Assembly (NCBI GenBank): GCA_003213595.1
Contig: QCMR01000002.1
Span: 128,015 to 192,014, forward strand
Source: SAR86 cluster bacterium AG-422-E19
GTDB taxonomy: Bacteria; Pseudomonadota; Gammaproteobacteria; Magnimaribacterales; AG-339-G14
Direction of reading: 5' to 3'
DNA length: 64,000 bases
A program made the translations under genes and the position numbers. Shown here one piece after another: positions 11,506-39,104 of the stretch. The notes beneath the pieces are model-generated. The model worked only from the letters and a program-made list of their open reading frames with translations, did no database searches and was not told where the DNA came from. Position 1 is the stretch's first letter. Every line of letters begins with the position of its first letter.

Positions 11506-11506
11506 T

Positions 11507-12418: not shown

Positions 12419-12450
12419 CAGTTTATTATACTAGACAATTCATGCCTTTC

Positions 12451-14180: not shown

Positions 14181-14322
14181 ATGATCAAATTGAGGAGTGA
14201 TAATTTTTTTTATGTATTGTTGATCAAACCACCAATGAATTCTTTTAAGCCAAAAAGGTCTATTGTCTTTTCTAATTTTTAATCTCCAGATATTTTTACA
14301 TCATGTATGATACAGCGATTCT

Positions 14323-15732: not shown

Positions 15733-15954
15733 ATGATTGAAATAGATGCCAAAGGTCTTAAATGTCCTGAGCCAATAATGCTTCTTCATCAATCTATTCA
15801 TGAAGCTAAAAAAGGTGATGAAGTGACTCTCATAGCTACAGATCCTACTGCAATTAAAGATGTCAAAAAGTTCTGCGAATATCTTAATCATTCGTTGATA
15901 TCTTTTTCTGAAGATGACGGAATCATTACATTCAAAGTAAAAAAGGGAGAGTAA
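15733..15954 (+). CDS. TusA/SirA-family sulfurtransferase-like protein
   Basis: 73 aa. GLKCPEPIM carries the Cys-Pro-x-Pro signature of the TusA fold. Its start abuts the stop of the MATE gene. Confidence 0.8.
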   Translation: MIEIDAKGLKCPEPIMLLHQSIHEAKKGDEVTLIATDPTAIKDVKKFCEYLNHSLISFSEDDGIITFKVKKGE

Positions 15955-15959
15955 GGAAT

Positions 15960-16997
15960 ATGGAAAAAATTAATAAGAGATGGGTCTTAGCAAAAAGACC
16001 TGAAGGCATGCCAGAAGATGAATGTTGGAAATTAGAAGAGGCTTCTATAAATGATCTTGATGAGAATCAAATCTTAATTAAAGTGATGTATCTCTCTATT
16101 GATCCATACATGCGAGGTAGAATGAACGATATGAAATCTTATACCGAGCCTGTTGCAATAGGAGAGGTAATGACAGGTGAAAGTGTTGGGCAAGTAATTC
16201 AATCCAGATCAGAGAAATTCCAAATTGGAGATTACGTTGCAGCCCACTTGGGTTGGCAATCTTTCATCAGATGTAGTGATGATAATCCTGCATTAATGAG
16301 AATTTATCCTGACTTGGCCCCAATACAATCTTTTTTAGGACCAGCAGGTATGCCAGGTAGGACTGCTTATTTTGGGCTTAAGGAAGTAGGAAAGGTAAAG
16401 GAAAGTGATACCGTGGTTGTGTCTGCAGCCTCTGGAGCTGTGGGCTCTGTCGTTGGTCAAATGGCTAAACTTATTGGTTGTAAAACTATAGGTATCGCAG
16501 GCGGAAAGAAAAAATGTGATTTTGTTAAGGATGTGATGGGATTGGATTATGCCGTTGACTATAAATCAAAAACATTTAGAGATGACTTATCTAAGGCTTG
16601 TTCAGATGGGATAGATATCTATTTTGAAAATGTTGGTGGAGAAGTTTCAAAAGCAGTTGCCGAGCTTCTCAATCCTGGAGCGAGAGTTCCAATTTGTGGC
16701 TTTATCTCAGCCTATAATTCCTTTAATTCGAACATCACAGAAAGCAATGAGTTACCTGAAACTCCCTTTGATATCTTTGGGAATTTAGATCCAGCACCTG
16801 AGCATAGATTTTTTGTGGTTACAGAATTTAATGAAAATTGGGAAGAGGCAACTGGAGAGTTAGCTGAATGGATGCGTCAAGGTAAAATAAAATACAAAGA
16901 AACCGTCTTAAAAGGTATTGAGAATGCTCCACAGGGGTTACGAGATGTATTAAGCGGCAAGAATTTTGGAAAACAACTTATAAAAGTGAGTGACTAA
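15960..16997 (+). CDS. NADP-dependent medium-chain alkenal/enone oxidoreductase (YncB/CurA/PTGR1-like)
   Basis: 345 aa. WVLAKRPEG N-terminus and nucleotide motif AASGAVGSVVGQMAK. Confidence 0.85.
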   Translation: MEKINKRWVLAKRPEGMPEDECWKLEEASINDLDENQILIKVMYLSIDPYMRGRMNDMKSYTEPVAIGEVMTGESVGQVIQSRSEKFQIGDYVAAHLGWQSFIRCSDDNPALMRIYPDLAPIQSFLGPAGMPGRTAYFGLKEVGKVKESDTVVVSAASGAVGSVVGQMAKLIGCKTIGIAGGKKKCDFVKDVMGLDYAVDYKSKTFRDDLSKACSDGIDIYFENVGGEVSKAVAELLNPGARVPICGFISAYNSFNSNITESNELPETPFDIFGNLDPAPEHRFFVVTEFNENWEEATGELAEWMRQGKIKYKETVLKGIENAPQGLRDVLSGKNFGKQLIKVSD

Positions 16998-18618
16998 AAA
17001 GTTTTCTTCAGAAACTAACCTCCCTTGGTGGAAAAAAGGAGTTATTTACCAGATTTATCCACGTTCTTTCAATGACACTTCTGGAAATGGTATTGGTGAT
17101 CTTAAAGGAATAACCAAAAAAATTTCTTACTTATCTTCACTAGGTATTGATGCTATATGGCTTTCTCCAATTTTTACCTCTCCTATGAGAGATATGGGTT
17201 ACGATGTTTCCAATTACACTGACATTGATCCCTTATTTGGAAATATTCTTGATTTTGAAAAACTCATAGAAAAAGCCAAAAAAAATAAAATTAAAATAAT
17301 AATTGATCAAGTTTTATCACATAGTTCTGATGCTCATCCTTTCTTTAAGATCAGTAAATCAAATAAAAATAATTCAAAATCAGATTGGTACGTCTGGGCC
17401 GATCCTAAGCCTGATGGCTCTCCTCCAAATAATTGGCTTTCTGTTTTTGGAGGCTCTGCATGGGAATGGGATACCAGCAGAGAGCAATATTACTTACATA
17501 ATTTTTTAAAGTCGCAACCGGACTTTAACTTTCATAATAAAGATGTTCAGAAATGGTTACTTTCAACTGTTAAGTTTTGGTTAGAAAAAGGTGTTGATGG
17601 CTTTAGGCTTGATACTGCAAATTATTATTTTCATGATAAAAAATTAAGAAATAATCCTGCTATCAAATCAAGCGCTTCTGGAAAAAATCCTTATTATTTC
17701 CAAAATTTAAAATATTCAATTAATCAAAAGGATAATTTTGCATTCCTAAAAAAGCTAAGAAAGCTTACAGATGAATATAAAGAAACGACGATGATTGGAG
17801 AAATTTCAAATGTTGAATTACAAGCTAAATACACTGCAAATAATGACAAACTTCATATGGCTTACAGTTTTGATCTTCTCAGAGATGAATTTTCTCCAAA
17901 ACACATAAGGAACACTGTTTCTAAATTTTTTAAAGAAACTAAAGATGGATGGCCGACATGGAGCTTTTCCAATCACGATGTAGTGAGGCATTTGTCTAGG
18001 TGGAATCAAACAAAAAAAAATAGACAAAAGTTTGCAAAATTAGCCTGTGTATTACTTATGTCGTTGAAAGGAACACCATGTATTTACCAAGGCGAAGAGC
18101 TTGGTCAAACTCAAACCAAAATTGAATTTGATGAAATTAAAGATCCTCCTGGAATAAAATTCTGGCCTATGGATTTTGGTAGAGATGGATGTAGAACTCC
18201 CATGATTTGGGATGAAAGCAAAAAATTTGCTGGTTTTTCAAATGCAAAGCCATGGCTTCCAATTAAAAAAGAACAAATTATGAACTCTGTTAAAAAGCAA
18301 TTAAGAAATAAAAATTCAACCTATTATTTTTATAAGACATTTATTTCTTTAAGAAAAAAAATATCCTTCTTTTCCGAAGAGATTTATTTTGAAAATAATA
18401 ATGAAGTTCTGATTTTTTATAGGGGAAATGAGAAAGAAATTTGTTGTGTGTTTAATTTATCGGAAAGAGAAATTAAGATAGATAATACTTATGGAAAAAT
18501 CATACCTTTTCTTCCATCTCAGCAGGTCAGGCAAGAATCAAAAAAATTAAATCTATCTTCTTATGGATTTTGTTTCTTGTCGAAAACAGATTTTAAGATT
18601 TCGAATGAAAAATCTTAA
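16990..18618 (+). CDS. GH13 alpha-glucosidase / oligo-1,6-glucosidase family
   Basis: GTG start. [31 protein letters not shown] and FSNHD match GH13 conserved regions I-IV. Confidence 0.9.
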
Positions 18619-19487
18619 AGAGACATTTCTTCTAAAATAGATTTTCCTATTTCAGATGGGCTTTTAACAGTCCTTACACCAGCACTTTCTAGGGCATTAA
18701 ATTTTTCTTCTGCCGTTCCTTTACCACCAGAAATTATTGCACCTGCATGCCCCATTCTTTTTCCAGGAGGTGCACTCACTCCTGCAATATAGCCTACAAC
18801 AGGCTTAGAGACGTTGTCTTTAATATATTCTGCAGCCTCTTCCTCAGCTGAACCCCCGATTTCTCCAACCATAACAATTCCCTCTGTTTGAGGATCCTCT
18901 TCAAAAAGCTTTAAAACATCGATAAAGCTTGTACCAGGAAGCGGGTCTCCGCCTATACCCACACAAGTAGACTGTCCGAGACCTGCCTTGGTAGTCTGAT
19001 CAACTGCTTCGTAAGTAAGAGTTCCTGACCTTGAGACAATTCCTACCTTACCAGGGCTATGGATGAAACCCGGCATAATTCCTAATTTGCATTCACCTGG
19101 AGTAATTATTCCTGGACAATTTGGACCAATAATTCTTATACCTTCCTTATCTGCTAATTCTTTAACTTCTAACATATCCAAGGTTGGAATACCTTCGGTT
19201 ATACAGATTATCAATTCAATACCGCTTTCTATTGCCTCAATTATTGAAGGTTTACAAAATTTGGCGGGGACAAAGATTATACTAGCACTTGCCTCGGTAG
19301 CTTGTTTTGCTTCTTTTACGGAATTGAAGACTGGGAGATCCAAATGAGTTTGCCCGCCCTTCCCAGGAGTGACGCCACCTAAAATATTGGTTCCGTACTC
19401 TATCGCTTGGCTACAATGCAATGTGCCTTGTGCTCCAGTAAACCCCTGACAAATCACTTTGGTTTTTTTGTTAATTAAAATACTCAT
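18615..19487 (-). CDS. sucD: Succinyl-CoA synthetase alpha subunit
   Basis: 290 aa. [11 protein letters not shown], and the phosphohistidine loop [11 protein letters not shown]. Confidence 0.98.
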
Positions 19488-20641
19488 CCTGAGTTTTTTA
19501 CTGCTAATTCAGCTGCATCTGAAAGATCATCTGCAGAAATGATATTAAGATCGCTTTCAGATAGAATTTTTTTTGCCTCTTCTGAATTATTCCCTTTAAG
19601 TCTCACAATAACAGGTATATCAACTCCAACTTCTGAAACAGCTGAAACTATCCCAGAGGCAACGACATCACACCTTACAATTCCACCAAAAATATTTATC
19701 AAGACCGACTTAACTTTTTCATCAGAAAGAATGATCTTAAAAGCCTCGGCTACTCTTTCTTTATCTACAGTGCCCCCAACATCCAAAAAATTCGCTGGAA
19801 ATCCGCCAGAAAGCTTAATGATATCCATTGTTGCCATTGCAAGACCAGCTCCATTAACCATACATCCTATATTTCCATCCAAAGCCACATAGTTAAGATC
19901 CCATTTTGCTGCTTCGATTTCCTTTTGATTTTCTTGCGAAGCGTCTCGCAGTTTTAAAAGATCTTCTTGTCTAAACAATGCATTTTCATCAATATTTATT
20001 TTTGCATCCAAACATTTTAGAGAATCATTTTGATCTATAACCAAAGGATTGATTTCAATCAAAGAAAGATCTTTTTCAAAAAATAAAGTTACCAATCCAG
20101 AAACTATTTTTTTAAATTCTACGGTTTGGTTGGAAGACAACTCTAGACCGTTAACCAAAGGAAGAACGTCAAAGTCTTCTTTCTTATTTTTGCTGACATT
20201 AATCTTAAAAATTTTCTCAGGACTTTTCTCGGCGACTTTTTCAATATCCATACCGCCTTCTGGTGAGGCCATCACCACCAAAGATTGAGAGCTCCTGTCT
20301 ATCACAGCACCAAGATAAAGTTCTTTTTGGATCGAGGTACTTTCTGCAATCATTATTGCTGAAACTGGCTTTCCTTCATCTCCAGTCTGGTGATTGACAA
20401 ATTTCTTTCCGAGCCAATCTTTAGCAAATTCTATAATCTCATCAATGTCGTTTGTTATTTTAACTCCGCCTACTTTCCCCCTTCCGCCAGCATGAACTTG
20501 GACTTTTGCAACAAATTCTTCGCCGTCTAATTCATTAATAAGATTAGAAATTTCTTCTGCTGAAAAGGCTACTACAGAGTTAGCTGTTGGTAAGTCGAAA
20601 TTTTCTAGGAGTTGTTTTGACTGATATTCGTGTAAATTCAA
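19484..20641 (-). CDS. sucC: Succinyl-CoA synthetase beta subunit
   Basis: 385 aa with a TTG start. [13 protein letters not shown]-terminus, ATP-grasp domain. Overlaps sucD by 4 nt. Confidence 0.98.
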
Positions 20642-20651
20642 AGTGTTAGTA

Positions 20652-21392
20652 TTATAAAGCCCTTTTTACTAACATTTTTTTAATTTCACCAATTGCTTTT
20701 GTAGGGTTTAAGCCTTTAGGACAGACTGAAACGCAGTTCATGATTCCATGGCATCTGAAAACACTAAAAGCGTCTTCTAATTGCTCTAATCTTTCTTCTG
20801 TAGCAGTATCTCTGCTGTCAGCAATAAATCTGTACGCTTGTAGAAGAGCTGCTGGTCCCAAAAATTTATCAGGATTCCACCAAAAGGATGGGCAGGCAGT
20901 AGAGCAGCAACCGCACATTATGCACTCGTAAAGGCCATCTAACTTTTCTCTTTCCTCGATTGTTTGAGGAATGGCTTCTCTGGTATCGACTTTTTTATCA
21001 GTAATCAGATATGGTTTTACTTTTTTATACTGATCAACAAATTGTTTCATATCAACAATTAAATCTTTAATAACAGGAAGTCCTGGCAGAGGTCTAATAG
21101 AAAGCTTATTAGATTTAGCTACATCAGATAAAGGCGTAATGCACCCAAGACCATTTTTACCATTTATGTTTAAACCATCAGATCCGCAAACTCCTTCACG
21201 ACAAGATCTTCTGAAAGAAATTGATGGATCCTGTTCCTTTGCAAGCATCAAAACGTCTAAAACCATTAAATCTTTTTCTGTAGGTATGTCTATATCAAAG
21301 TCCTGCATGTATGGCTTTTCTTGCTTCAGAGGATCATACCTGTAGATACTCAATCGAAGTGTTTTGATCTCACTTGCTGCAATCGCATTCAT
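20652..21392 (-). CDS. sdhB: Succinate dehydrogenase iron-sulfur subunit
   Basis: Cys clusters for the 2Fe-2S (CREGVCGSDG), 4Fe-4S (CIMCGCCSTACP) and 3Fe-4S (CHGIMNCVSVCP) centres. Confidence 0.98.
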   Translation of the reverse strand: MNAIAASEIKTLRLSIYRYDPLKQEKPYMQDFDIDIPTEKDLMVLDVLMLAKEQDPSISFRRSCREGVCGSDGLNINGKNGLGCITPLSDVAKSNKLSIRPLPGLPVIKDLIVDMKQFVDQYKKVKPYLITDKKVDTREAIPQTIEEREKLDGLYECIMCGCCSTACPSFWWNPDKFLGPAALLQAYRFIADSRDTATEERLEQLEDAFSVFRCHGIMNCVSVCPKGLNPTKAIGEIKKMLVKRAL

Positions 21393-23197
21393 TAATAAGT
21401 CCTGACAATTGGTTGGAAAGCCTGAACTTGTTTAGGCCTAAAGTTGACATCTCTTTTAGATACTTGCTTAGTATCGGAAAAATAAATTGAGTGTTTAAGC
21501 CAATTTTCATCATCTCTATCTGGGAAATCTTCTCTGGAGTGAGCTCCTCTACTTTCTTTCCTTTCGTTTGCACTAATTGCAGTAGCTTCAGCAACTTCGA
21601 TTAGATTGAGGAGTTCCAAAGCTTCAACTCTGGCTGTATTAAACTGTGAAGATTTATCAGCAAGATGAATGTTTTGAGATTTATCTCTTAGATCAGAGAC
21701 TTCTTTAATGCCATTTTCCATCAATTCTTCAGTTCTAAATACTCCAAAATTCATTTGCATTGTTTTTTGTAAGTCTTTCTTAACTTCAACAAAGTTTTCA
21801 CCAGATTGACTTACATTTACTCTGTTGAGATTTCTAAGAGCATAGTCGATATCATCAGATGAAGGATCATCCATTTTTATGCCTGCCTTGAAACTTTCTT
21901 CTATGTGTAATCCAGCAGATCTTCCAAAAACAATAAGGTCTAGAAGAGAATTTCCTCCTAATCGATTACCGCCATGAACGGAGACACAAGCTGCTTCTCC
22001 TGCAGCATAGAGACCATCTATGATTTTATCTGTACCGTCAGGATTTTGAGAAATGACCTGACCATGAACATTGGTTGGAATGCCTCCCATTGCATAATGA
22101 CAAGTGGGAACAACCGGAATAGGATGTTCGGCAGGATCAACATGAGCAAACCTTTTTGATAATTCTGTTACTCCAGGCAGTCTTTTGTGAACGATTTCTG
22201 GCCCTAAATGATCAAGTTTTAAATAAACATGATCAGCATCTGGACCACAGCCTCTACCTTCTAAAATTTCAGTAAACATGGATCTTGCAACAACATCTCT
22301 GCTAGCTAGGTCTTTATAGTTAGGTGCATATCTTTCCATGAATCGTTCGCCGTCTTTGTTAACCAAGTAACCACCTTCTCCTCTACAACCTTCAGTTACT
22401 AAAGTTCCATGACCATGAATACCTGTTGGATGAAACTGCCACATCTCCATATCTTGCACAGGGAAACCCGCTCTCAATGCCATTCCAGTACCATCACCGG
22501 TGTTGATGAGAGCGTTTGAAGTTGTTTGATATATCCTTCCAGCTCCTCCAGTAGCTAAAACAGTAGCTTTTGATTTTAAAAAGTATGGTTCGCCGGATTC
22601 AATTTCAAAGGCAATAACTCCAACAACCTGATCATTTTGATTTTTTACAAGATCAACTGCGAACCACTCTGAAAGAAAGTTGGTTCCCGCTTTAACGTTT
22701 GCTTGGAAAAGTGTATGCAAAAGAGCATGTCCTGTTCTATCGGCAGCAGCACAAGTTCTTTCTGCTTGTCCCCCTTTTCCGTAATCTTTTGACTGACCTC
22801 CAAATGCTCTTTGATAAATTTTGCCTTCTTCAGTTCGAGAAAATGGTAATCCCATATTTTCCAATTCAAATATTGCTTCAGGACCTTCTTTGCACATGTA
22901 TTCTATGGAATCCTGATCTCCAATAAAATCTGAGCCTTTAACAGTGTCATACATGTGCCATCTCCAATCGTCATCTGGGTCTGCACTTTGAATTGAGCAA
23001 GTGATACCACCTTGAGCAGAAACAGTATGCGAACGAGTAGGAAAAACTTTAGAAACAACAGCCGTATTCATTCCTGATTTAGCAAGCTGAAGAGATGCCA
23101 TCATTCCAGAACCACCACCACCAACGATAATTCCGTCAAATTCCTTTACCGGTAAAGTTGATGCATCTAAAAAGGTACCTTTTCCATTCATTGCCAT
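21392..23197 (-). CDS. sdhA: Succinate dehydrogenase flavoprotein subunit
   Basis: 601 aa. [12 protein letters not shown] fold, the covalent-FAD histidine context SHTVSAQGG, and the HPTG motif. Confidence 0.98.
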
Positions 23198-23202
23198 AAT
23201 TA

Positions 23203-23565
23203 CTAACCTAAAATATAAAAACTACAAATAATTAAACCAAGAGCTTGGAGCCAACTAAAACCTATGACTGCAGGTCTAAGAATTTTAGCGGAGGCACCAA
23301 TTTGCGCCTGAGTAAGATAATCAGTCGCTACGTTCCAAATTCCTTGCACTGAATGATAAGCAATTGAAATGGCGACGATTACCGTAAAAATTTCTACAAG
23401 GAGAATATCAAAAAAGCCAGATAGTTGTTCGTATTTAAAGTCTCTATTGACTAACCAATAGAAGGTTATAACTGAAAAATATACTGCTTGAATTGTCGCT
23501 GTGATTCTTACTAAGACATAATCAAAGATTCCTGTTTTTTTTAATCTGTATAGCTTCGTTACCAT
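23203..23565 (-). CDS. sdhD: Succinate dehydrogenase membrane anchor subunit SdhD
   Basis: 120 aa with 3 TM helices. Called mainly from its position between sdhC and sdhA. Confidence 0.85.
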
Positions 23566-23927
23566 GCCAAATAAAGAAAAGAGAAGAAAAATAATCCAGT
23601 TGAAAGAAAAGTAGCAAGAGCTGACATCCTGCCGGCTTTAAGAGTTTCCCAGTATCCAAAGTCCATTACTAAATGTCTTAAGCCAGAAATAAAATGATAA
23701 AAAATTGCCGTAATGAAAAAAGTAAATAAGCTTTTAAAGAGAATATTTTCAAATAATAAAATGATGATTTCGTAATTTGCTTCAGAACTCAAAGAAAAAA
23801 CTAATAACCCCATCATTGGAAGGGATAAAACGAAAATAGCAACTGCAGATAGTCTATGCAGAATAGAGGAAACCCCTGGCAAAGGTAAAGCAATCTTGAA
23901 TAGATTTAGGTATCTAGGCGAATTCAT
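23559..23927 (-). CDS. sdhC: Succinate dehydrogenase cytochrome b556 subunit SdhC
   Basis: 122 aa with 3 TM helices. HRLSAV and GLRHL histidine contexts. First gene of the sdh cluster. Confidence 0.85.
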   Translation of the reverse strand: MNSPRYLNLFKIALPLPGVSSILHRLSAVAIFVLSLPMMGLLVFSLSSEANYEIIILLFENILFKSLFTFFITAIFYHFISGLRHLVMDFGYWETLKAGRMSALATFLSTGLFFFSFLYLAW

Positions 23928-23965: not shown

Positions 23966-25402
23966 TTAGCGCCTTGCTATCCTTTTTCTCTTAGCTAATT
24001 GCTTTTTCGTTAGTTTGTTTTTCTTATCCCCAAAAGGATTGGTATTATTTTTAAAAACCAATTTAATTGGAATTCCCTCATAGTTCATTTTTTTTCTTAA
24101 AAAATTTTCCAAGTACTTTTGATATTGTTTTGTTAACTTATCTAAGTTGTTACCCTGAATCCTGATAATTGTAGGTTGAGATGAAAGTAAATTTGCGTAT
24201 TTAATTTTTGGCCTAAACCTGCCAGACATCTGAGGGGGATTTAACATTGATGCTTCTTCAACTAGGTCATTCAACTTTGAGGTATCGATTTTCTTAAAGC
24301 TTTTTTTTATGAGCTTTATAAGCTCTTTGAATGCCTTTGCAGTACCTTTATTTTGTTTTGCTGAAATATAATGAATAGAGATACCGGATATGAAAGCTAA
24401 TTTTTTATTAATGGATCTAGTTAAATTTGATTTTTCGTATTGAGAGAGTACATCTGATTTGTTGATGCCTAAAATCATAGGTTTTCCAGAGGAAACAATC
24501 AATGAAATAAGATGTAAATCTTGATCAGTAATGTTTTCTTTTCCATCAATTAAATAAAGTACTCCAGAAGAAGATCTCATGCTCGAAATAGCTTTAGAAA
24601 CTGAGAAACTTTCTATTACTTGATCTATTTTTGATTTTTTTCTCAAGCCCGCTGTGTCAAAAAGTTCTATCTTGTCATTTTTAAAAACAATTGATTTAGA
24701 AATAGCATCTCTTGTTGTACCTGCCTTGTCTGAAACAATAGAACGATTTTCTTTAATTAAAGAATTAAAAAAAGTTGATTTTCCAGCATTGGGTTTTCCT
24801 AGGATACTCACCTTTATATTTTGACTATCAATTTCGTCTTCAAGATTAGAACTTGTTTCAATTTGAATTTGATTCAAGATTTCCTCTTTAAGATCTTTTA
24901 TACCTAAACCGTTTTTTGCAGATACTTTGATAAAGCTTTTTACTCCAAGTTGATAAAAGTCATTGACATTCTTTTCTGAAGATTTAAGTTCAGATTTATT
25001 TAGGGCAAGAATATATTTTTTTCCAGATTTTCTGAGAATTTCATGAATCTTATAATCATCTTGGCTTAAACCATAGTGAGCATCTACTAAAAAAATAAAC
25101 CCGTCAGCTTCCTCAATCGCCTTATATATTTCCTTCAGAATAAGAAGATTTATTTCTTCTCTTTCTTCTGAAATCCCCCCTGTATCAATTATTGAGAAAT
25201 TTTTAGATTTAAATGAAAAGTTTCCATAAAGCCTATCTCTGGTCAATCCAGAAAAATCAGCAATTATGGCCTTATCTTCCCCAATTATTTTATTAAAAAG
25301 CGAAGATTTACCAACGTTAGGTCTGCCTATTATTGCTACTATGGGTCCCATGTTGGGGACAATATCATTGCAAAGTGAAGAGTGAAAGTTTTCCTTTTGC
25401 AT
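23966..25402 (-). CDS. der: Ribosome-associated GTPase Der (EngA)
   Basis: Tandem GTPase domains (GRPNVGKSS and GKPNAGKST, each followed by DTGG/DTAG) plus a KH-like C-terminus. The likely true start is Met18 (ATG at 25351), which removes the overlap with bamB. Confidence 0.95.
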   Translation of the reverse strand: MQKENFHSSLCNDIVPNMGPIVAIIGRPNVGKSSLFNKIIGEDKAIIADFSGLTRDRLYGNFSFKSKNFSIIDTGGISEEREEINLLILKEIYKAIEEADGFIFLVDAHYGLSQDDYKIHEILRKSGKKYILALNKSELKSSEKNVNDFYQLGVKSFIKVSAKNGLGIKDLKEEILNQIQIETSSNLEDEIDSQNIKVSILGKPNAGKSTFFNSLIKENRSIVSDKAGTTRDAISKSIVFKNDKIELFDTAGLRKKSKIDQVIESFSVSKAISSMRSSSGVLYLIDGKENITDQDLHLISLIVSSGKPMILGINKSDVLSQYEKSNLTRSINKKLAFISGISIHYISAKQNKGTAKAFKELIKLIKKSFKKIDTSKLNDLVEEASMLNPPQMSGRFRPKIKYANLLSSQPTIIRIQGNNLDKLTKQYQKYLENFLRKKMNYEGIPIKLVFKNNTNPFGDKKNKLTKKQLAKRKRIARR

Positions 25403-26495
25403 CTAATGATAAGACATTATCTTCAAAAGAAGACAATGAAATAATTTTAGACCTAGAGACTCTTTTTCTGGCAACTTGCTCACCATCGCTAGTATTTAAT
25501 GCATGGAGATATCCTTGAAAATCACCAAAAACAATCAAGGATTTAATTTTGCTGGGAGAAGTTAAATCTCGTAAGTAAAAATCTTTGTTGAACCATTCTA
25601 AATTTCCAGAATTTTGAGAATATGCTATTGCATTATCATTTTCATCAACAAGAAATATTTTTCCCCTAGAATACAAAAGATCATTAACAGTTGATGTCTT
25701 CTCCCTCCAAAAAGTTCTTCCTGATCTAGTATCAATTGCGGCTATGTCTCCTTGATATGTTGCAACAAATACAACGTTATTTGAGAATACGAAATTTCCA
25801 TCAATATCAACCAATCTTGCAATTTCGGATGTTTCCTTGGAAATAGTTACTGGAATCTCCCATTGAACAATTCCAGATCTAGGTTCAATTTTTGCTAAAT
25901 TTCCGTTGGCGAATCCAGCATACAAAAATCTTTCATGGAAAGAAGGTTCAGAAGTGCCTCTAATCGTCAAATTAGGTATTACACTTCTATAATCCCACCT
26001 AAATTCGCCACTTTCTAAGTCTAAAGCTGTTACCCTCCCATCAATAGTTTGTACTGCTACTATGTCGCCATTGGTTGATGGAGGTGCTAAAACCTCACCA
26101 GAAGAGCTATATTTCCATAAGGTGTTTCCAGTTGCTTTAGACAAGCAATATATATCTCCGTTAGAAGAACTGAGAAGAAGTTTTCCAAACGCCAAGTTAA
26201 TGCCTGTTGAAATATCTGAATCCAATTTAATAGTCCAATTTTTTTTTCCGTTATATGAGTAAGATTTGATTTCTCCTTTGGAGTCAAAAACAAAAATATT
26301 TTTCTCATCAAAAGATATTTTTATTTTGCCTAGGGGAGGATTCTTAAAAACATTTGCAGACCATTGCTTTTTAAAAAGAAAACTTTCGTTAATTTCTTTT
26401 TTTAATTCATTTGGCTTTTCTTCTTCTTTTGCTCCTGTCTCACAAGCGACCAAAAGTAAAAACAAAAATATATATGTTAAAGATTTAAAATTCAT
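25365..26495 (-). CDS. bamB: Outer-membrane assembly lipoprotein BamB
   Basis: Lipobox LLLVAC and PQQ-like beta-propeller repeats. Conserved position between yfgM and der. Confidence 0.85.
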   Translation of the reverse strand: MNFKSLTYIFLFLLLVACETGAKEEEKPNELKKEINESFLFKKQWSANVFKNPPLGKIKISFDEKNIFVFDSKGEIKSYSYNGKKNWTIKLDSDISTGINLAFGKLLLSSSNGDIYCLSKATGNTLWKYSSSGEVLAPPSTNGDIVAVQTIDGRVTALDLESGEFRWDYRSVIPNLTIRGTSEPSFHERFLYAGFANGNLAKIEPRSGIVQWEIPVTISKETSEIARLVDIDGNFVFSNNVVFVATYQGDIAAIDTRSGRTFWREKTSTVNDLLYSRGKIFLVDENDNAIAYSQNSGNLEWFNKDFYLRDLTSPSKIKSLIVFGDFQGYLHALNTSDGEQVARKRVSRSKIISLSSFEDNVLSLDAKGKLSLFTLQ

Positions 26496-32112: not shown

Positions 32113-33348
32113 TTATGCCCACTCTATTTTATCTAAATCTACGCCATCTTGATACATTTCCCAGAGTGGAGAGATTTCTCTAAGTTTGTCAACAGAGTCT
32201 TTTACAAGCTCTACAGTCTCTTTAACCTCTTGTTCCTTTGTGAACCTTCCAAAAGAGAATCGTATCGAGCTATGAGCAAGTTCATCTTTTCTTCCTAATG
32301 CCCTTAAAACATAAGAAGGTTCAAGGCTAGCAGAGGTACAAGCAGAGCCAGATGAAACTGCAATATTTTTCAATGCCATTATTAAAGACTCGCCTTCAAC
32401 AAAGTTGAATGACATGTTAAAGATTCCTGGAAATGTGTTATCAATTGCTCCGTTTATATAAACTTCTTCCATATCTTTTAATCCGTTCCACAAAATGTCT
32501 CTGTATTTATAAAGATTTTTAAAATCTTCTGACATCTTTTCTTTGGCAAGCTTAAAGGCTTCACCCATCCCAACGATCTGATGTGTTGGAAGAGTACCTG
32601 CCCTTATACCTCTTTCTTGGCCCCCGCCATGAAATAAAGGTTGAAGACGCACTCTAGGCTTTCTTCTAATATACAACGCTCCAATCCCTTTAGGACCATA
32701 AATTTTATGAGCAGAAAATGACATTAAATCGACTTCTAAATTCTCAATATCAATTGGAATTTTCCCTGCGCTTTGTGCTGCATCAACGTGAAAGATACTT
32801 CCATTTTGTTTTACAATTCTTCCGATAGCCTCAATATCGTTTATAACGCCTATTTCATTATTGATATGCATCAAAGAAACTAAAACAGTATCCTCTCTGA
32901 GGGCTGCTTTGACAGACTCAGGCGTAATAATTCCATCACTGTTTGGCTCTAGATAAGTTACTTCGTAAGATTCGCTTTCAAGTTGTCTGCATACATCTAA
33001 AACAGCTTTGTGTTCAATTTTGGAAGTGATTATGTGTTTACCTTTATCGGAGTAAAAGTATGCTGCACCTTTGATAGCTAGGTTGTCTGATTCAGTAGCT
33101 CCAGAGGTCCAAATAATTTCTCTGGAATCACAATTTAATAAGTTAGCAACATTTACTCGAGCTTCCTCAACTAATTCTTCAGCCTTCCAGCCAAAAACAT
33201 GAGATCTTGATCCAGAATTACCAAATGCTCCATCGACTGATAAACATTCTTTCATTTTATCTACCACCAATGAATCAACTGGAGTAGTAGAAGCGTAATC
33301 AAAATAGTAAGTATTCATTTCATCTAAAATTCGCGTGAATAATATCAC
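32113..33348 (-). CDS. iscS: Cysteine desulfurase IscS
   Basis: The PLP lysine context [12 protein letters not shown] and the active-site loop SSGSACTS. The likely true start is Met11 (ATG at 33318, [13 protein letters not shown]). Confidence 0.96.
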
Positions 33349-33487: not shown

Positions 33488-35518
33488 ATGTTAGATAAAA
33501 AATATTTGTTTAAAAGAAATAACGTATGGTGGGTAAAACTTGCTGTACCTTTATCTTTAAGAAGTGAATTAGGCTATGATTTAAGAAGAACTACTGGCGA
33601 AACAGACTTAGATAAAGCAATTCCTATCAGAGATAAAATCATTGAAGATTTTAAAACTGAATTTCAAATAAGGAAAGTTAATGCAGATGATAAAGGTATC
33701 GTGCTTCGAGGGACTGAGCACATGCAAAAAACTGATATTTCTGATCCACAATATTTTCATAAGGTAGTTGATTGCCAATATGCATGCCCTGCTCATACCA
33801 ATGTTCCCGAATATATTCGTCTAATTGCTCAGAAAAAATATGACGACGCATATATGCTTAACTGGGAATCTAACGTATTTCCAGGAATACTTGGAAGGAC
33901 CTGTGATAGGCCTTGTGAACCTGCATGTCGGAGAGGGAGAACTCACGACAAGCCAGTAGCTATCTGTAGATTAAAAAGAGTCACTTATGATTATAAGAAT
34001 GATATTGATCCTTATCTTCCTGAAATTCCAAAAGTTAAAAATGGTAAAAAAATTGGCCTGATTGGAGCAGGCCCTGCGTCTTTGACAGTGGCAAGAGACT
34101 TATTACCCTTAGGTTATGAAGTTACTATTTTTGAGAAAGATAATAAGCCTGGTGGATTAATGAGAACTAATATTCCTTCTTTTAGGCTTCCAGCGGAAGT
34201 TTTGGACGAAGAGGTTTATAGAATTATCAAAATGGGAGCTGAACTGAAAACCAATTCATATATCGATAGCCTAGAAAATGTTATTGATTCTTTTGATGCT
34301 GTATTTGTTGGCACTGGGGCACCAAAAGGTAAAGATCTTGAAATACCTGGTAGAAAAGAAGCAAGTGAAAATATTCATATTGGTATCGATTGGTTAACTA
34401 GTATTGCTTTTGAGCATACCAAATCAATAGGTAAGAAAGTTATTGTCATTGGCGGTGGAAATACAGCTATGGATTGCTGTAGGACAGCCATTAGGTTGGG
34501 AGCAGACGACGTTAAAGTGACTGTCAGAAGTCCAAAGTCAGACATGAAGGCATCTGATTGGGAGTTAGAAGAAGCAATTGACGAGGGAATTCCTATTCTA
34601 GATAACACTTCTCCAAAAGAATTTTTATTGGATGATGAGGGCAAACTTAAGGGTATGAAGTTTGAAAAAATGGAAGCTCAATATACCGATGGTAAAAGAA
34701 AGTTAATTCCTACGGGCGAAGAAATAATTATTGAATGCGATGACGTGCTTTTAGCAATTGGTCAAGATAATGCCTTTCCATGGATAGAAAAAAATATCGG
34801 AATTGAATTTAATGAATGGGACTGCCCTATTGTTGATAAAACCACAATGCAGTCTTCTCACCCAAAAGTCTTTTTCGGTGGTGATGCTGCCTGGGGTCCT
34901 GAAAACATCATATGGGCTGTAGCGCATGGTCATCAAGCTGCAATTTCCATTGATAATTTTTGTAGTGAGGTTGACTTATTTGATAGGCCTCCACCGCTTA
35001 CAAATTTAGTAAGTCAAAAAATGGGAATTCATGAATGGTCTTATGACAATGGCATTTCTCAAGAAGCTCGTTTAGAAGTTCCTCATGCAGATTTAAAACA
35101 AGCTCTAAGTGATCTTAAAATGGAAGTTGAGCTTGGCTTTGATGAGAAACTCGCGCTCGATGAAGCGCAAAGATGTCTTAATTGCGATATGCAGACAGTT
35201 TTTCAAGAAAAGCTTTGTATAGAGTGTGATGCTTGTGTTGATATTTGTCCGACAGACTGTATTACATTCACTACAAATGATACTGAAGAAAAGGTCAGAG
35301 AAAAACTTAGAGTGCCTGCTTTGAATTTGGATCAAGATCTTTATGTCTCAGAAAAACTAGCTACTGGAAGAATAATGGTTAAAGATGAAGATATGTGCGT
35401 TCATTGTGGACTGTGTGCAGAAAGGTGTCCAACTGGAGCTTGGGACATTCAAAAAAATAATTATATTGAAGCGCATAACTTGAACAAAGATAGAGTTAAA
35501 GCCAAGGAAGTGGCTTAG
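33488..35518 (+). CDS. GltD-like NAD(P)H flavoprotein fused to a C-terminal 2x[4Fe-4S] ferredoxin domain (putative electron-transfer subunit of the adjacent KorAB)
   Basis: N-terminal Fe-S region CPAHTNVP...CDRPCEPACRRG. Two dinucleotide folds (IGLIGAGPASL, VIVIGGGNTAMDCCRTA). C-terminal CLNC...CIECDACVDICP and CVHCGLCAERCP. The first 78 aa are atypical. An internal ATG at 33722 has a GAGG Shine-Dalgarno 8 nt upstream and may be the real start. Confidence 0.8.
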   Translation: MLDKKYLFKRNNVWWVKLAVPLSLRSELGYDLRRTTGETDLDKAIPIRDKIIEDFKTEFQIRKVNADDKGIVLRGTEHMQKTDISDPQYFHKVVDCQYACPAHTNVPEYIRLIAQKKYDDAYMLNWESNVFPGILGRTCDRPCEPACRRGRTHDKPVAICRLKRVTYDYKNDIDPYLPEIPKVKNGKKIGLIGAGPASLTVARDLLPLGYEVTIFEKDNKPGGLMRTNIPSFRLPAEVLDEEVYRIIKMGAELKTNSYIDSLENVIDSFDAVFVGTGAPKGKDLEIPGRKEASENIHIGIDWLTSIAFEHTKSIGKKVIVIGGGNTAMDCCRTAIRLGADDVKVTVRSPKSDMKASDWELEEAIDEGIPILDNTSPKEFLLDDEGKLKGMKFEKMEAQYTDGKRKLIPTGEEIIIECDDVLLAIGQDNAFPWIEKNIGIEFNEWDCPIVDKTTMQSSHPKVFFGGDAAWGPENIIWAVAHGHQAAISIDNFCSEVDLFDRPPPLTNLVSQKMGIHEWSYDNGISQEARLEVPHADLKQALSDLKMEVELGFDEKLALDEAQRCLNCDMQTVFQEKLCIECDACVDICPTDCITFTTNDTEEKVREKLRVPALNLDQDLYVSEKLATGRIMVKDEDMCVHCGLCAERCPTGAWDIQKNNYIEAHNLNKDRVKAKEVA

Positions 35519-37350
35519 TGGAAAATCCTGTAAAAGTAGATCCGATTAATTCTCTTAATGACTTTGTCATTAAATTTGCAAATGTAAATGGAACAGGTTC
35601 TGCAAGTGCTAACCAAATGTTTGCTAAATCTATCTTTAGGATGGGAATACCTATTAGTCCAAAAAATATTTTTCCTTCAAATATCCAAGGTTTGCCTACT
35701 TGGTTTGAAGTCAGAGTAAATAATAAGGGATACTTAGGAAGTAGAGGCGGTGTAGATATTGCTGTTGCTATGAATCCCCAAACTTATTCTCAAGACGTTG
35801 AGGAAATTTTAGAGGGTGGTTACCTTTTATATGATTCTACTTGGAAAAGAAATTTCAATAGGGACGATATCACTATTATCGAAATACCTTTAACGCAACT
35901 TTGTGTAGATTCTTTTACTAACGCCAAACAAAGGGCATTATTTAAAAATATTGCCTATGTAGGAGCATTATCACCTCTTTTGGAAATTGAATATGAAGTT
36001 CTTGAGAAATTAATTTCAGAACAGTTTGTAAACAAGCCTGCGCTTATCGAACCAAATATAAAAGCTTTAAACATAGGAAGAGATTACGTTTTAAAGAATT
36101 TACCTTATCCACTGGGAATTAACGTTAAAAGAGAAGATAAGCTTAAAGATAAAATACTTGTTTCTGGAAATGATGCATGTGGATTAGGAGCGGTCTATGG
36201 AGGAGCTACATTTTGCTCTTGGTATCCAATAACACCATCTACCTCTGTTGCTGAAGGCTTTGAAAAATACGCCTCAAAATATAGGGTTGATCCTCAGACG
36301 GGTAAAAATAACTATATAAGTGTTCAAGCAGAAGATGAATTAGCTGCAGTTGGAATGGCGATAGGTGCAAATTGGAATGGCGCTAGAGGCTTCACTGCAA
36401 CAAGCGGCCCGGGCATCTCCTTAATGAGTGAATTTTTAGGTTTAGCTTATTTTGCTGAAGTACCTCTGGTTATTTTCAACATTCAAAGAGGTGGACCTTC
36501 AACTGGAATGCCAACCAGAACTCAACAATCCGATATCCTTACATGTGCTTATGCTTCACATGGTGACACTAAACATGTACTTTTATTTCCAGAAGATCCT
36601 CAGGAGTGTTTTGAGTTTTCTGCAGAAGCTTTTAATTTAGCAGAAAGATTACAAACTCCTGTATTTGTAATTAGTGATTTAGATATTGGAATGAATGATT
36701 GGGTTACAGATAAATTTGATTGGGATGATGAACAGAAATATGACAGAGGAAAAGTTCTTAAGGCTGAAGATTTAGACAAGATGGATAATTTTGGAAGATA
36801 TTTAGATGTTGATGACGATGGTATTTGCTATAGAACCTATCCTGGAACCCACCCTGAAAAGGGAGCATTCTTTACAAGAGGAACATCTCATGATGAATAT
36901 GCTAGGTACACTGAAAATGGAGATATCAACGAGCAAACTTTAACGAGATTGGTTAAAAAGTTTAGGACTGCGTCTGAATTAGTTCCTGATCCAATTATTA
37001 ATCTTTCCGAAAAACAAGGAAGTTCTGGGGTAATTTTCTATGGAAGTACATCTGCAGCAATGTATGAGGCTAAAGATATTCTCAATGAAAATAACATTGA
37101 GGTAGATCTCATGAGAATTAGATCTTTCCCTTTTAATTTAGATGTATGGGAATTTATTGAAAACCATGACCTTATCTATGTGATTGAACAAAACAGAGAT
37201 AGTCAAATGAGAACCTTGATAATGGCTGAAGGAGGAATTTCAGCAGAAAAACTTAGATCACTAGTGTGGTTCAATGGGGATCCAATTCAGGCTAAATTTA
37301 TTGCTAAGAAAATATATGAAAGAGAATCACAACAGGCATTAATCTCATGA
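35518..37350 (+). CDS. korA: 2-oxoacid:ferredoxin (acceptor) oxidoreductase alpha subunit (KorA-type, fused gamma+alpha domains)
   Basis: 610 aa with a GTG start overlapping the upstream stop by 1 nt (TAGTG). KFANVNGTGSASAN N-terminal domain, then the pyrimidine-binding domain SWYPITPST...ATSGPGISLM. Confidence 0.88.
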   Translation: MENPVKVDPINSLNDFVIKFANVNGTGSASANQMFAKSIFRMGIPISPKNIFPSNIQGLPTWFEVRVNNKGYLGSRGGVDIAVAMNPQTYSQDVEEILEGGYLLYDSTWKRNFNRDDITIIEIPLTQLCVDSFTNAKQRALFKNIAYVGALSPLLEIEYEVLEKLISEQFVNKPALIEPNIKALNIGRDYVLKNLPYPLGINVKREDKLKDKILVSGNDACGLGAVYGGATFCSWYPITPSTSVAEGFEKYASKYRVDPQTGKNNYISVQAEDELAAVGMAIGANWNGARGFTATSGPGISLMSEFLGLAYFAEVPLVIFNIQRGGPSTGMPTRTQQSDILTCAYASHGDTKHVLLFPEDPQECFEFSAEAFNLAERLQTPVFVISDLDIGMNDWVTDKFDWDDEQKYDRGKVLKAEDLDKMDNFGRYLDVDDDGICYRTYPGTHPEKGAFFTRGTSHDEYARYTENGDINEQTLTRLVKKFRTASELVPDPIINLSEKQGSSGVIFYGSTSAAMYEAKDILNENNIEVDLMRIRSFPFNLDVWEFIENHDLIYVIEQNRDSQMRTLIMAEGGISAEKLRSLVWFNGDPIQAKFIAKKIYERESQQALIS

Positions 37351-38399
37351 GTTACTTTAAACCAATAAATAAACACCCCAATTTAGAAAAAAATAAGTTA
37401 GGTCTCACTAGAAGAGATTATGAAGGTGGCGTTTCTACGCTATGTGCTGGATGTGGCCATGATTCAATAAGCGCTTGCATCATTGAAGCCTGTTTTAGGT
37501 TAAATATAGAAGCATACAAAGTAGCTAAATTGTCTGGAATTGGATGTTCTTCAAAAGCTCCTGCATACTTTTTAAACGCCTCTCATGGATTTAATTCTGT
37601 TCATGGAAGGATGCCTTCTATAGCAACAGGAGCAAATTGCGCTAATGAGGATTTACTATATTTAGGCGTATCAGGAGATGGAGATAGTGCTTCAATTGGT
37701 ATAGGTCAATTTATTCATGCAATAAGGAGGCAAGTGAACATGGTATATTTCGTTGAAAATAATGGAACATATGGTTTAACGAAAGGACAATTTTCCGCAA
37801 CAAATGACCTTGAATCTAAAAATAAATATGGAGAAGATAATTTATTCCCGCCAATTGATCTTACTTCAATGGCAATTCAGATGGGAGCATCATATGTAGC
37901 TAGAAGCTTTTCAGGAGATAGGGATCAGTTAGTTCCTTTAATTATGGGGGCAATTCAACACAAAGGTTTTGCGCTCTTGGATATTATTAGTCCTTGTGTG
38001 ACCTTTAATAATCATGATTCTTCAACTAAAAGTTACGATTACATTCGAAATCACAATGAAGCTATGGGCAAAACAGATTTTGTTCCCCTAGGAGAGGAAA
38101 TTAAGACTAATTATGATGACGGTTCGAGTGTAGAAGTAAAGCTTCATGATGGTTCAAGACTTTCATTAGAAAAAACAGATCATAATTTTGATCCCACGGA
38201 TGCTGGGAAATCTTTGGAGTTAATTAGGGAAAAAAATAAAGAAGGAAAAATTATCACCGGATTGCTTTATGTAGACAATAAATGCAAGCCTTTAACTGAA
38301 ATAATGGACTTGCCTGATAAACCACTTAACACTTTAGAACAGGATGAACTTTGTCCTGGCAGCGAGATATTGGAAGAAATTAATAAAGGTTTAAGTTAA
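37347..38399 (+). CDS. korB: 2-oxoacid:ferredoxin oxidoreductase beta subunit (KorB-type, TPP-binding)
   Basis: 350 aa. CAGCGHD cluster ligands and the TPP motif GDGDSASIG...(x)...VENNGTYGLTKGQ. ATGA overlap with korA. Confidence 0.9.
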   Translation: MSYFKPINKHPNLEKNKLGLTRRDYEGGVSTLCAGCGHDSISACIIEACFRLNIEAYKVAKLSGIGCSSKAPAYFLNASHGFNSVHGRMPSIATGANCANEDLLYLGVSGDGDSASIGIGQFIHAIRRQVNMVYFVENNGTYGLTKGQFSATNDLESKNKYGEDNLFPPIDLTSMAIQMGASYVARSFSGDRDQLVPLIMGAIQHKGFALLDIISPCVTFNNHDSSTKSYDYIRNHNEAMGKTDFVPLGEEIKTNYDDGSSVEVKLHDGSRLSLEKTDHNFDPTDAGKSLELIREKNKEGKIITGLLYVDNKCKPLTEIMDLPDKPLNTLEQDELCPGSEILEEINKGLS

Positions 38400-39104
38400 A
38401 TTTACACCAAGTCTGTGTGCAATTTCTTGGTAAGATTCAACCACGTCTCCAAGACCCAGTCTAAATCTATCTTTATCTAATTTCTTTTTAGTTTCCTTGT
38501 CCCATACTCTACAACCATCAGGAGTAAATTCATCTCCAAGATATATTTTTCCTGAGTTTTTTCCAAACTCTAATTTGAAGTCAACAAGGATTAAATCCGC
38601 TTTAAGAAATAAATCTACTAAATGATCGTTAATTTCTAATGTGAGATTTTTTAAAGCATCTATATCATCTGCTTCTGCCCAGCCAAAAGATATTATGTGA
38701 TTATCATTTATCATTGGATCGCCTAAGTCGTCATCTTTATAAAAGAATTCGAAAATTGGATTTTCAAATTTCATCCCCTCCTCAAGACCAAGGCGCTTGC
38801 AAATACTTCCTGCGGCATAATTCCTCACGACACATTCAATTGGAAACATATCTAAAGATAAAACCAAACTCTCGCGGTCATTTAGTTCTTCTAGAAGATG
38901 ACAAGCTACGCCTTTGGAGTCTAAATGATTCATAATAAAGTTATTGAATCTGTTATTGACTGTACCCTTTCCGGCTAGTTGTTCTATTTTTTTTCCATCA
39001 AATGCAGAGGTGTCGTCAGTAAAATCCATTACAAGCTTAGATTCATCTGCTGTCTTATAAAGCTCTTTAGCTTTTCCTTTTGTTAGTAATTCTTTCTTTT
39101 CCAT
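38391..39104 (-). CDS. purC: Phosphoribosylaminoimidazole-succinocarboxamide (SAICAR) synthase
   Basis: 237 aa. GKAKELY, SAFDG and DEFTPDGCRVWD motifs. Its 3' end overlaps the korB 3' end by 9 nt (convergent genes). Confidence 0.95.
   Translation of the reverse strand: MEKKELLTKGKAKELYKTADESKLVMDFTDDTSAFDGKKIEQLAGKGTVNNRFNNFIMNHLDSKGVACHLLEELNDRESLVLSLDMFPIECVVRNYAAGSICKRLGLEEGMKFENPIFEFFYKDDDLGDPMINDNHIISFGWAEADDIDALKNLTLEINDHLVDLFLKADLILVDFKLEFGKNSGKIYLGDEFTPDGCRVWDKETKKKLDKDRFRLGLGDVVESYQEIAHRLGVNLT

Follow-up and report, generated by a model that had tools for sequence, protein, structure and literature searches.

Loss in place of sucA-sucB-lpd from the sdhCDAB-sucCD operon of a SAR86 bacterium, and a 2-oxoacid oxidoreductase as its probable 2-oxoglutarate-oxidizing enzyme

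How does a bacterium proceed from 2-oxoglutarate to succinyl-CoA when the genes of the 2-oxoglutarate dehydrogenase (OGDH) complex are missing from the operon that usually holds them? The question is raised by a stretch of 64,000 nucleotides (the window) from SAR86 cluster bacterium AG-422-E19 (contig QCMR01000002.1, positions 128,015 to 192,014), in which the succinate dehydrogenase genes sdhCDAB run directly into the succinyl-CoA synthetase genes sucCD. The corresponding operon is sdhCDAB-sucABCD in E. coli, and the full order sdhCDAB-sucA-sucB-lpd-sucCD is found in Pseudomonas. Compared with the Pseudomonas-type operon, the window was found to keep sdhCDAB at the beginning and sucCD at the end, in unchanged order and on one strand, whereas the three genes in the middle are replaced by 10 nt. 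A reading of the nucleotide letters by themselves (the sequence-only reading) had already reported that sucA, sucB and lpd are missing from their canonical slot, and had proposed that a KorAB-type enzyme encoded nearby, a 2-oxoacid:ferredoxin oxidoreductase (OFOR), acts in place of OGDH. In the analysis described here, the absence of these genes was confirmed, and we consider it likely that sucA-sucB-lpd was lost in place and that the OFOR is the 2-oxoglutarate oxidizer of a lineage without any 2-oxoacid dehydrogenase complex. Relatives were represented by 150 genomes drawn evenly from the order and falling into four families, f1 (the window's own) to f4; all counts given below exclude the window's genome.

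In a profile search of the open reading frames (ORFs) of the window, all six products of the operon scored above the curated NCBIfam cut-offs. The genes all lie on the minus strand: sdhC (23559..23927) encodes the cytochrome b556 subunit of succinate dehydrogenase (TIGR02970, 87.6 bits; cut-off 52.3), sdhD (23203..23565) the membrane anchor subunit (TIGR02968, 62.8 bits; cut-off 41.8), sdhA (21392..23197) the flavoprotein subunit (TIGR01816, sdhA_forward, 941.5 bits; cut-off 727) and sdhB (20652..21392) the iron-sulfur subunit (NF004616, 357 bits; cut-off 228), which together make up the four E. coli-type subunits in C-D-A-B order. The beta and alpha subunits of an ADP-forming succinyl-CoA synthetase are encoded by sucC (19484..20641; NF001913, 530.2 bits; cut-off 370) and sucD (18615..19487; NF004230, 475.4 bits; cut-off 336), both over equivalog cut-offs and overlapping each other by 4 nt. 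The TAA stop codon of sdhB (20652-20654) and the TTG start codon of sucC (20641-20639) are separated by a spacer of 10 nt (20642..20651, coding strand TACTAACACT), and the distance given by the sequence-only reading agrees with both coordinates and sequence. Residues 1-382 of SucC were aligned to positions 1-383 of the NF001913 model, and since the match begins at the first residue of both protein and model, the TTG start is right; the start sequence TTG-AAT-TTA-CA is common to the relatives G003 and G001. The distance between the SdhB and SucC matches, taken from match coordinates, was 13 nt in all 11 same-genus genomes containing both genes, and the junction is spanned by two RNA-library contigs, X5 record 19 (20469-20772) and X9 record 26 (20583-20741, one mismatch in 159), from two independent runs of two studies. 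This recurrence and bridging show that the junction is not an assembly artefact. Bridging of the junction is all that was taken from the RNA-library contigs, since neither the existence nor the extent or abundance of one transcript can be read from them, uncovered parts carry no information and such libraries may contain DNA. The bridging fits co-transcription of sdhCDAB with the fused sucCD, which is probable. Downstream, sucD converges with an alpha-glucosidase-like gene of the GH13 family (16990-18618, plus strand; best match NF051899 'BglA', 727 bits, below the cut-off of 900), and the 4-nt overlap of the two stop regions leaves no room for a terminator behind sucD.

What stood between sdhB and sucC is seen in relatives that keep the missing genes. 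G118 (f3, locus L034) was found to have the order bamB-der-sdhCDAB-sucA-sucB-lpd-sucC-sucD, with products of 934 aa (SucA), 398 aa (SucB; TIGR01347, 563 bits) and 472 aa (Lpd; TIGR01350, 540 bits), and with 5,441 nt between the sdhB stop and the sucC start, as against 10 nt in the window; this bears out the clean excision of about 5-6 kb proposed by the sequence-only reading. The same layout was observed by tblastn in G012 (f4, L035), and the order and flanks in both relatives are those of the Pseudomonas-type operon. The window, like G118, keeps bamB and der upstream, and der (engA; 23966..25402, minus strand; TIGR03594, 471.9 bits), which precedes sdhC in L034 and L035 too, is the upstream synteny anchor common to the relatives keeping sucAB-lpd. 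Because f3 and f4 relatives keep sucA-sucB-lpd (5.4 kb) between the same flanks, the window represents an in-place deletion of that length, of which the 10-nt spacer is the scar.

Intermediate arrangements were found in f2. G001 has a single gene between sdhB and sucC, an intact lpd (476 aa, 528 bits), and coordinates place lpd in this slot in ten f2 genomes altogether (G001, G021, G029, G033, G045, G069, G085, G101, G142 and G148). The 472-nt spacer of G041 holds an internally deleted lpd remnant (L033, G041:C12:22000-25000, 1463-1900) with residues 1-58 and 376-476 only, and a second, intact lpd lies on another contig of that genome. Genus g10 has a spacer of about 120 nt, with lpd located elsewhere. 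The f2 genera with lpd in the slot are largely those retaining one gene for an E2 component. The full order of G118 and G012, common also to Pseudomonas, together with the decaying lpd remnant, indicates that the direction of change was loss and not gain. The sequence-only reading had pointed to related lineages as a means of dating the deletion, and the junction appears in them as full operons in f3 and f4, lpd intermediates in f2 and a constant short distance within the genus. Identity to the window's proteins is about 58-62% in f2 versus 47-57% in f3/f4 for SucC, and about 69-73% versus 62-70% for SdhB, which suggests a sister relationship of f1 and f2; the families equated with f1 and f2 are also described as sisters in a preprint on the order (Ramfelt et al., 2024; bioRxiv 10.1101/2024.03.17.584874). 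If they are sisters, the loss of sucAB would have come first and would date from the ancestor of both, and lpd would have disappeared afterwards, on more than one occasion.

Could the OGDH genes simply be located elsewhere, or in the unassembled 9% of the genome, the deletion then being an operon rearrangement or an assembly gap? The window's genome consists of 1,109,701 bases (35% GC) in 18 contigs and is 91.35% complete, so that absence from this one assembly is no proof. Profile searches of it gave no match for SucA (E1o, TIGR00239), a model that in positive controls matched E. coli and six other named genomes. SucB (TIGR01347) drew two matches of 25-27 bits, to biotinyl/lipoyl-type domains; the E2 catalytic domain 2-oxoacid_dh (PF00198) had no match, and the best match for Lpd (E3, TIGR01350) reached 49 bits against a cut-off of 409. 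This negative result extends to the sampled members of f1, with SucA, the E2 catalytic domain and Lpd each found in 0 of 40 genomes, among them G003 (one contig, 97% complete; also without LipA) and G011 (two contigs, 96% complete). In addition, only 10 nt are left of the canonical slot, which is located well within a long contig, lipoate synthesis is missing as described below, and the slot of G041 holds lpd in decay. With the refuting case of the sequence-only reading, intact OGDH genes elsewhere in the genome, thus not encountered, an explanation by rearrangement or assembly gap is extremely improbable, and loss in place remains the reading followed here.

Beyond what the sequence-only reading had claimed, the pyruvate dehydrogenase (PDH) complex and lipoate synthesis were also found to be gone. 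All matches of the window's genome to PDH E1 (aceE, E1_dh) are transketolase/DXS-like and below the cut-off, and the genome is without OGDH and without a PDH complex. The best match for the lipoate synthase LipA scored 20 bits, and the H protein of glycine cleavage (GcvH) had no match. Both absences are expected if no lipoyl protein remains. Lipoate-dependent proteins were sought in this genome as E2s and GcvH and none was found, LipB/LplA and GcvP/T not having been searched; family f1 appears to live without any lipoate-dependent enzyme.

The distribution across the order follows family lines. SucA was detected in 0/40 genomes of f1, 1/40 of f2 (a 16-bit non-hit), 38/40 of f3 and 25/30 of f4, and the E2 catalytic domain in 0/40, 6/40, 40/40 (mostly two copies) and 26/30, respectively. 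The corresponding numbers are 0/40, 31/40, 37/40 and 24/30 for Lpd and 0/40, 35/40, 38/40 and 27/30 for LipA. The flanking genes are general: SucC was found in 37/40, 37/40, 37/40 and 25/30 genomes and SdhB in 37/40, 37/40, 38/40 and 24/30, and each is present in all 55 genomes of the order that are at least 90% complete. The alpha subunit of the OFOR was found in 28/40 genomes of f1, 34/40 of f2, 4/40 of f3 and 0/30 of f4, which is the mirror image of the SucA distribution and agrees with the replacement of OGDH by an OFOR, as a predicted function, that the sequence-only reading had put forward. Two f3 genomes with an OFOR in which SucA was not found, G122 and G137, were considered as cases of replacement in progress; this was rejected, since SdhB and SucC are likewise unmatched there and the locus is therefore unassembled. 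The locus is likewise unassembled in four of the five SucA-less f4 genomes, and the fifth, G104 (75% complete), has SucC only.

The OFOR genes form a module, korC-korA-korB, on the plus strand (33488-38399), 12.8 kb from the start of sucC, as the sequence-only reading had estimated at about 13 kb. The module is bordered on the left by iscS (32113..33348, minus strand; NF010611, 685.7 bits) and on the right by purC (38391..39104, minus strand; TIGR00081, 237.8 bits), and iscS also edges this variable slot in loci L026-L029, L037, L125 and L126 of relatives. The KorA-like alpha subunit (610 aa, 35518..37350; TIGR03710, 581.8 bits; cut-off 482.75) contains PF01558 and PF01855 (POR, POR_N), and the KorB-like beta subunit (350 aa, 37347..38399; TIGR02177, 186 bits, below the cut-off of 262; PF02775, 82 bits) is predicted to bind thiamine pyrophosphate (TPP) and a [4Fe-4S] cluster, which is the domain content of a two-subunit OFOR. 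This is the single OFOR of the genome, the korA-like gene encoding its sole alpha subunit. The KorC-like subunit (676 aa, 33488..35518; assigned from Pfam domains, NF009410 scoring 427 bits, below the cut-off of 516) has a weak DUF6538-like N-terminus followed by Fer4_20, a GltD-like FAD/NAD(P)-binding core (Pyr_redox_2) and a C-terminal 2x[4Fe-4S] ferredoxin domain (Fer4_7), an order that fits an internal electron wire to NAD(P). A GltD-like Fe-S flavoprotein encoded together with korA and korB is the mark of a three-subunit 2-oxoglutarate:NADP+ oxidoreductase (KGOR), and the domains predict about five [4Fe-4S] clusters per KorCAB protomer. The triad was found to be kept in 79 of 80 related loci, the 80th being without upstream DNA; these loci belong to Alphaproteobacteria, Bacteroidota, other Gammaproteobacteria and one myxobacterial metagenome-assembled genome (MAG). 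Within f1 and f2, the OFOR is syntenic, 15-19 kb from sucC.

What is known of related enzymes bears on the substrate. The best structural matches of KorA and KorB are the enzymes 6n2n/6n2o, which we take to be the 2-oxoglutarate enzyme (OGOR) of Magnetococcus marinus, and StOFOR1/2 of Sulfolobus tokodaii (5b48, 5b46); the two best scores were 226.8 (6n2n_A) and 208.5 bits for KorA and 153.6 (6n2n_B) and 142.2 bits for KorB. Unlike the window's enzyme, these work with free ferredoxin and are not paired with a KorC subunit. A 2-oxoglutarate:NADP+ oxidoreductase of Azoarcus evansii, reportedly described by Ebenau-Jehle, Boll and Fuchs in 2003, is said to serve anaerobic aromatic ring reduction beside normal metabolism. 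It reportedly also combines two OFOR subunits with a GltD/NfnB-like flavoprotein, which the domain order in the window fits, whereas the window's enzyme is proposed to be the sole 2-oxoacid oxidizer of an aerobe and has the extra DUF6538-like N-terminus. The 'KGOR-alpha' of the Azoarcus enzyme has been placed in the GltD-like family (PMC10134865). Equivalents of Thr256a and Arg344a of StOFOR1, which contact the substrate carboxylate, and of Lys49b and Leu123b are conserved in KorA/KorB, Lys49b being reported as needed for 2-oxoglutarate (PMC5020499).

From these data, we infer the substrate of the OFOR, its electron acceptor and the direction of flux as follows. Most likely, 2-oxoglutarate would undergo oxidative decarboxylation to succinyl-CoA by the three-subunit OFOR, KorA/KorB carrying TPP and one [4Fe-4S] cluster and the KorC-like subunit accepting the electrons at its ferredoxin domain and relaying them over its Fe-S clusters to FAD, from which they would reach NAD(P)+. 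SucCD would convert succinyl-CoA to succinate with formation of ATP, and SdhCDAB would oxidize that succinate. The OFOR may also oxidize pyruvate to acetyl-CoA and, with PDH gone too, may thus serve both substrates. The opposite direction, in which SucCD would make succinyl-CoA and the OFOR, as a 2-oxoglutarate synthase, would add CO2 to it, draws on the fact that OFORs are reversible in principle and that the closest solved relative presumably comes from an organism with a reverse tricarboxylic acid (TCA) cycle. However, a GltD-like, NAD(P)-linked subunit would supply electrons at about -320 mV, too high for carboxylation without low-potential ferredoxin, and both gene content and the SAR86 literature describe an aerobic heterotroph; on these two grounds, reductive operation is very improbable.

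Several points weigh against 2-oxoglutarate oxidation by the OFOR following loss in place. The assembly of the window's genome is, at 91%, incomplete, and the sampled genomes are kin, so that the contrast between families reflects one or a few events and not 150 independent ones. Four f3 genomes carry an OFOR and two of them also have SucA, showing that the presence of an OFOR alone does not mean replacement. Only the superfamily model TIGR03710 was exceeded, every 2-oxoglutarate-specific NCBIfam model lying far below its cut-off. Moreover, Asp468a of StOFOR1, the loss of which is reported to abolish 2-oxoglutarate activity (PMC5020499), is Thr in KorA and Leu in the best PDB match; with the other four residues conserved, 2-oxoglutarate specificity is not readable from the sequence. 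The OFOR is absent in 12 of the 40 f1 genomes, of which six (G023, G027, G031, G035, G039 and G047) have a completeness of 90% or more, and G009 (f2, one contig, 95% complete) has a truncated korA only. Finally, an isocitrate-lyase-like ORF could allow cells to bypass the 2-oxoglutarate step. This ORF of 559 aa (C5:14956-16404 of the window's genome) is a divergent one through which a glyoxylate bypass could run: three separate parts of it align to the model of isocitrate lyase, with 114, 44 and 38 bits, and none of them reaches the family cut-off of 276.

An alternative is a cycle that is open at 2-oxoglutarate, with the OFOR mainly replacing PDH, 2-oxoglutarate serving just as an end product for biosynthesis, carbon flowing through a glyoxylate shunt and SucCD running in reverse to make succinyl-CoA for biosynthesis. 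With PDH E1 and E2 missing, some enzyme must oxidize pyruvate if sugars are used; the isocitrate-lyase-like ORF is present, methylmalonyl-CoA mutase, another possible source of succinyl-CoA, was not found in the window's genome, and the OFOR is dispensable in some relatives. Two-subunit Sulfolobus OFORs accept both pyruvate and 2-oxoglutarate (PMC5020499), and Ramfelt et al. (2024) also propose a double role for the OFOR and report a glyoxylate shunt in all families. The same considerations bear on one argument of the sequence-only reading, namely that retention of SucCD only makes sense if some enzyme still supplies or consumes succinyl-CoA. This was overstated, as neither OGDH nor an OFOR is required for SucCD to be kept: SucC is found in all genomes of high quality, including G009 and genomes in which the OFOR is replaced as described next, and with a glyoxylate shunt possible and SucCD able to run backwards, the argument is too strong.

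What occupies the slot when the OFOR is missing? In all four OFOR-less f1 genomes in which it was examined (G023, G027, G031 and G039), two other genes were found between iscS and purC. The first (L026:9459-11129) encodes a TPP enzyme of 556 aa that scored 852 bits with NF006187/PRK08322, over the cut-off; this model, named just 'acetolactate synthase large subunit', was also passed in two control genomes. Its best PDB match is 13bb (458 bits), named acetolactate synthase only, and its clusters in the protein atlas carry only that name. The best 120 of 8000 scored candidates carry either no name or that of 'acetolactate synthase large subunit', and those with a name that come closest are from Sphingomonadales, at 66-68% identity. 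The second gene (L026:7950-9338) encodes an acylating aldehyde dehydrogenase of 462 aa, whose best structural match is SucD of Clostridium kluyveri (8CEI, 532 bits, residues 10-461), ahead of AdhE (316 bits). In the C. kluyveri enzyme, Cys242 and His364 are catalytic and Lys70, Ser243 and Thr395 shape the succinyl pocket (PMC10249356). Lys66, Lys70, Cys242, Ser243, His364 and Thr395 are identical in the SucD-like dehydrogenase and Thr365 is replaced by Ser, giving it the residues of a CoA-acylating succinate-semialdehyde dehydrogenase (EC 1.2.1.76). Only 1 of 300 scored other Gammaproteobacteria had a match to this gene at E <= 1e-100, an AdhE of 866 aa with 41% identity; the SucD-like gene itself was found in none of them.

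The TPP gene was found in 11/40 genomes of f1, 4/40 of f2, 0/40 of f3 and 0/30 of f4. In f1, 27/40 genomes have the OFOR only, 10/40 the two-gene cassette only, one both (G132, with the cassette gene partial at a contig end) and two neither (G123 and G138, both less than 80% complete); the corresponding numbers in f2 are 33/40 (counting G009 with its truncated korA), 3/40, one (G049) and three. No homologue of either cassette gene was found in the window's genome. The TPP enzymes of genera g1 and g3 share 91% identity, and IscS and SucC of these genera are about 75% and 62% identical to those of the window, which suggests that the cassette has been exchanged among lineages. G049 carries the two modules on a single contig (L124, G049:C60:20000-39999, 7341-18707), with korC-korA-korB present and the cassette inserted into the isc operon, where it is flanked by the homologue of o30328 and the Fdx-IscA homologue.

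A TPP enzyme beside a succinyl-specific acylating dehydrogenase, in the place of the OFOR and in genomes without OGDH, suggests a route from 2-oxoglutarate via succinate semialdehyde to succinyl-CoA, as predicted from sequence and context. The relatives' cassette, which the window does not have, resembles the TCA bypass of cyanobacteria, which consists of a 2-oxoglutarate decarboxylase and a succinic semialdehyde dehydrogenase (sll1981 / SYNPCC7002_A2770; PMC10418658), in that an acetolactate-synthase-like TPP enzyme stands beside a succinate-semialdehyde dehydrogenase in cells without OGDH. However, the dehydrogenase of the cassette is CoA-acylating, so that its product would be succinyl-CoA instead of succinate and the ATP-forming step of SucCD would be kept. 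It is by its context that the TPP enzyme resembles the decarboxylase of cyanobacteria; by sequence, it is assigned only to acetolactate synthase families. A literature search on SAR86 and succinate semialdehyde found nothing, and one on 2-oxoglutarate decarboxylase with succinyl-CoA reductase found unrelated synthetic biology and nothing on SAR86.

The exchange of OFOR for cassette, regardless of the precise reaction of the latter, provides independent comparative support that the job of the slot is the step between 2-oxoglutarate and succinyl-CoA, and the retention of the succinyl-carboxylate-binding residues in the SucD-type enzyme argues against a cycle open at 2-oxoglutarate. The best solved relative of KorA/KorB, 6n2n, which as said we take to be a 2-oxoglutarate enzyme, argues in the same direction, and the only characterized three-subunit, NADP-linked enzyme of this build that we know of is also a 2-oxoglutarate enzyme. 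An open cycle is thus unlikely, and oxidation of 2-oxoglutarate by the OFOR is the preferred reading.

Some observations concern the OFOR locus itself. In G009 (L036, G009:C1:1042000-1058000, 7497-9014), the last ~139 residues of korA directly follow der and precede an intact korB, and neither a korC-like gene nor the cassette is present; the locus resembles an OFOR operon in the process of being lost. In G091, korA consists of two abutting pieces, possibly by frameshift or sequencing error. At the N-terminus of the KorC-like ORF, ~60 residues (window 33488-33700) are DUF6538-like at 19 bits, below the Pfam threshold. This extension was found in 17 of the 80 related loci, which are SAR86-like, from some MAGs labelled Marinoscillum, Cytophagales or Bacteroidota, or from a few unclassified bins. 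In four OFOR-less relatives, a DUF6538-like domain (60-68% identical) was found in reverse orientation, immediately preceding iscS and on the same strand as that gene (L026:7533-7709, minus strand; L027:10128-10304; L028:12424-12597; L029:6604-6807), and in L026, the one locus where the frame was read, it is in frame with IscS without an intervening stop. The domain is conserved yet shifts between two adjacent genes. Elsewhere in the window, an ORF of 207 aa between hisS and bamB (26495-27118, minus strand) has no NCBIfam match at E <= 1e-5 and is 57-74% identical in same-genus relatives; from its position, it is presumably a YfgM-like gene.

How much of this was known? The loss is already described for SAR86 at the level of gene content, Ramfelt et al. 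(2024) reporting that a single 2-oxoacid oxidoreductase takes the place of both OGDH and PDH in the SAR86 families RedeBAC7D11 and Magnimaribacteraceae, with the same pattern of gene loss as f1 and f2; the finding as given is therefore not new, and the window mainly offers a clean positional illustration of the published OGDH/PDH replacement. Their order comprises four families in two sister pairs, with genomes of 1.0-1.7 Mb (more precisely, 1.05-1.66 Mb) and a GC content of 31-40%, and a closed isolate genome of 1.62 Mb in a family with larger genomes, all of which fits f1-f4 and the GC content of 34-35% in the window. We infer that f1 is RedeBAC7D11, f2 Magnimaribacteraceae, f3 Suzuki and f4 CHAB-I-7. 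Ramfelt et al. read the OFOR as a reducer of ferredoxin, whereas the domain order of the KorC-like subunit points to an NAD(P)-linked enzyme. The main text of the preprint contains no operon geometry and no mention of lpd, lipoate, lipoamide, dihydrolipo-, glycine cleavage, acetolactate or aldehyde dehydrogenase, and its supplementary tables may hold more. New here are the stepwise deletion series, with sucAB lost first, then lpd, and one remnant caught in decay; the apparent disappearance of all lipoate-dependent metabolism from one family; the NAD(P)-linked instead of ferredoxin-linked reading of the OFOR; and a locus at which an Fe-S enzyme alternates with a metal-free pair of TPP enzyme and aldehyde dehydrogenase.

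Unlike KorCAB, the cassette enzymes are predicted to need no iron, and an iron-sparing role of the cassette is a speculation. A broader picture can be put forward tentatively, as a possibility with somewhat less than even chances: the cassette would be a third, iron- and lipoate-free way of closing the cycle, and SAR86 would swap iron-costly and iron-free modules by recombination at one locus, possibly tracking the iron of the surface ocean, with f1 made up of free-living aerobes without a lipoate-dependent enzyme. Enzymology is feasible with HIMB1674, a SAR86 strain from the sister family that is available in culture. SAR86 bacteria are among the most abundant bacteria of the surface ocean, and the way in which their citric acid cycle is run matters for modelling how carbon and iron are used there.

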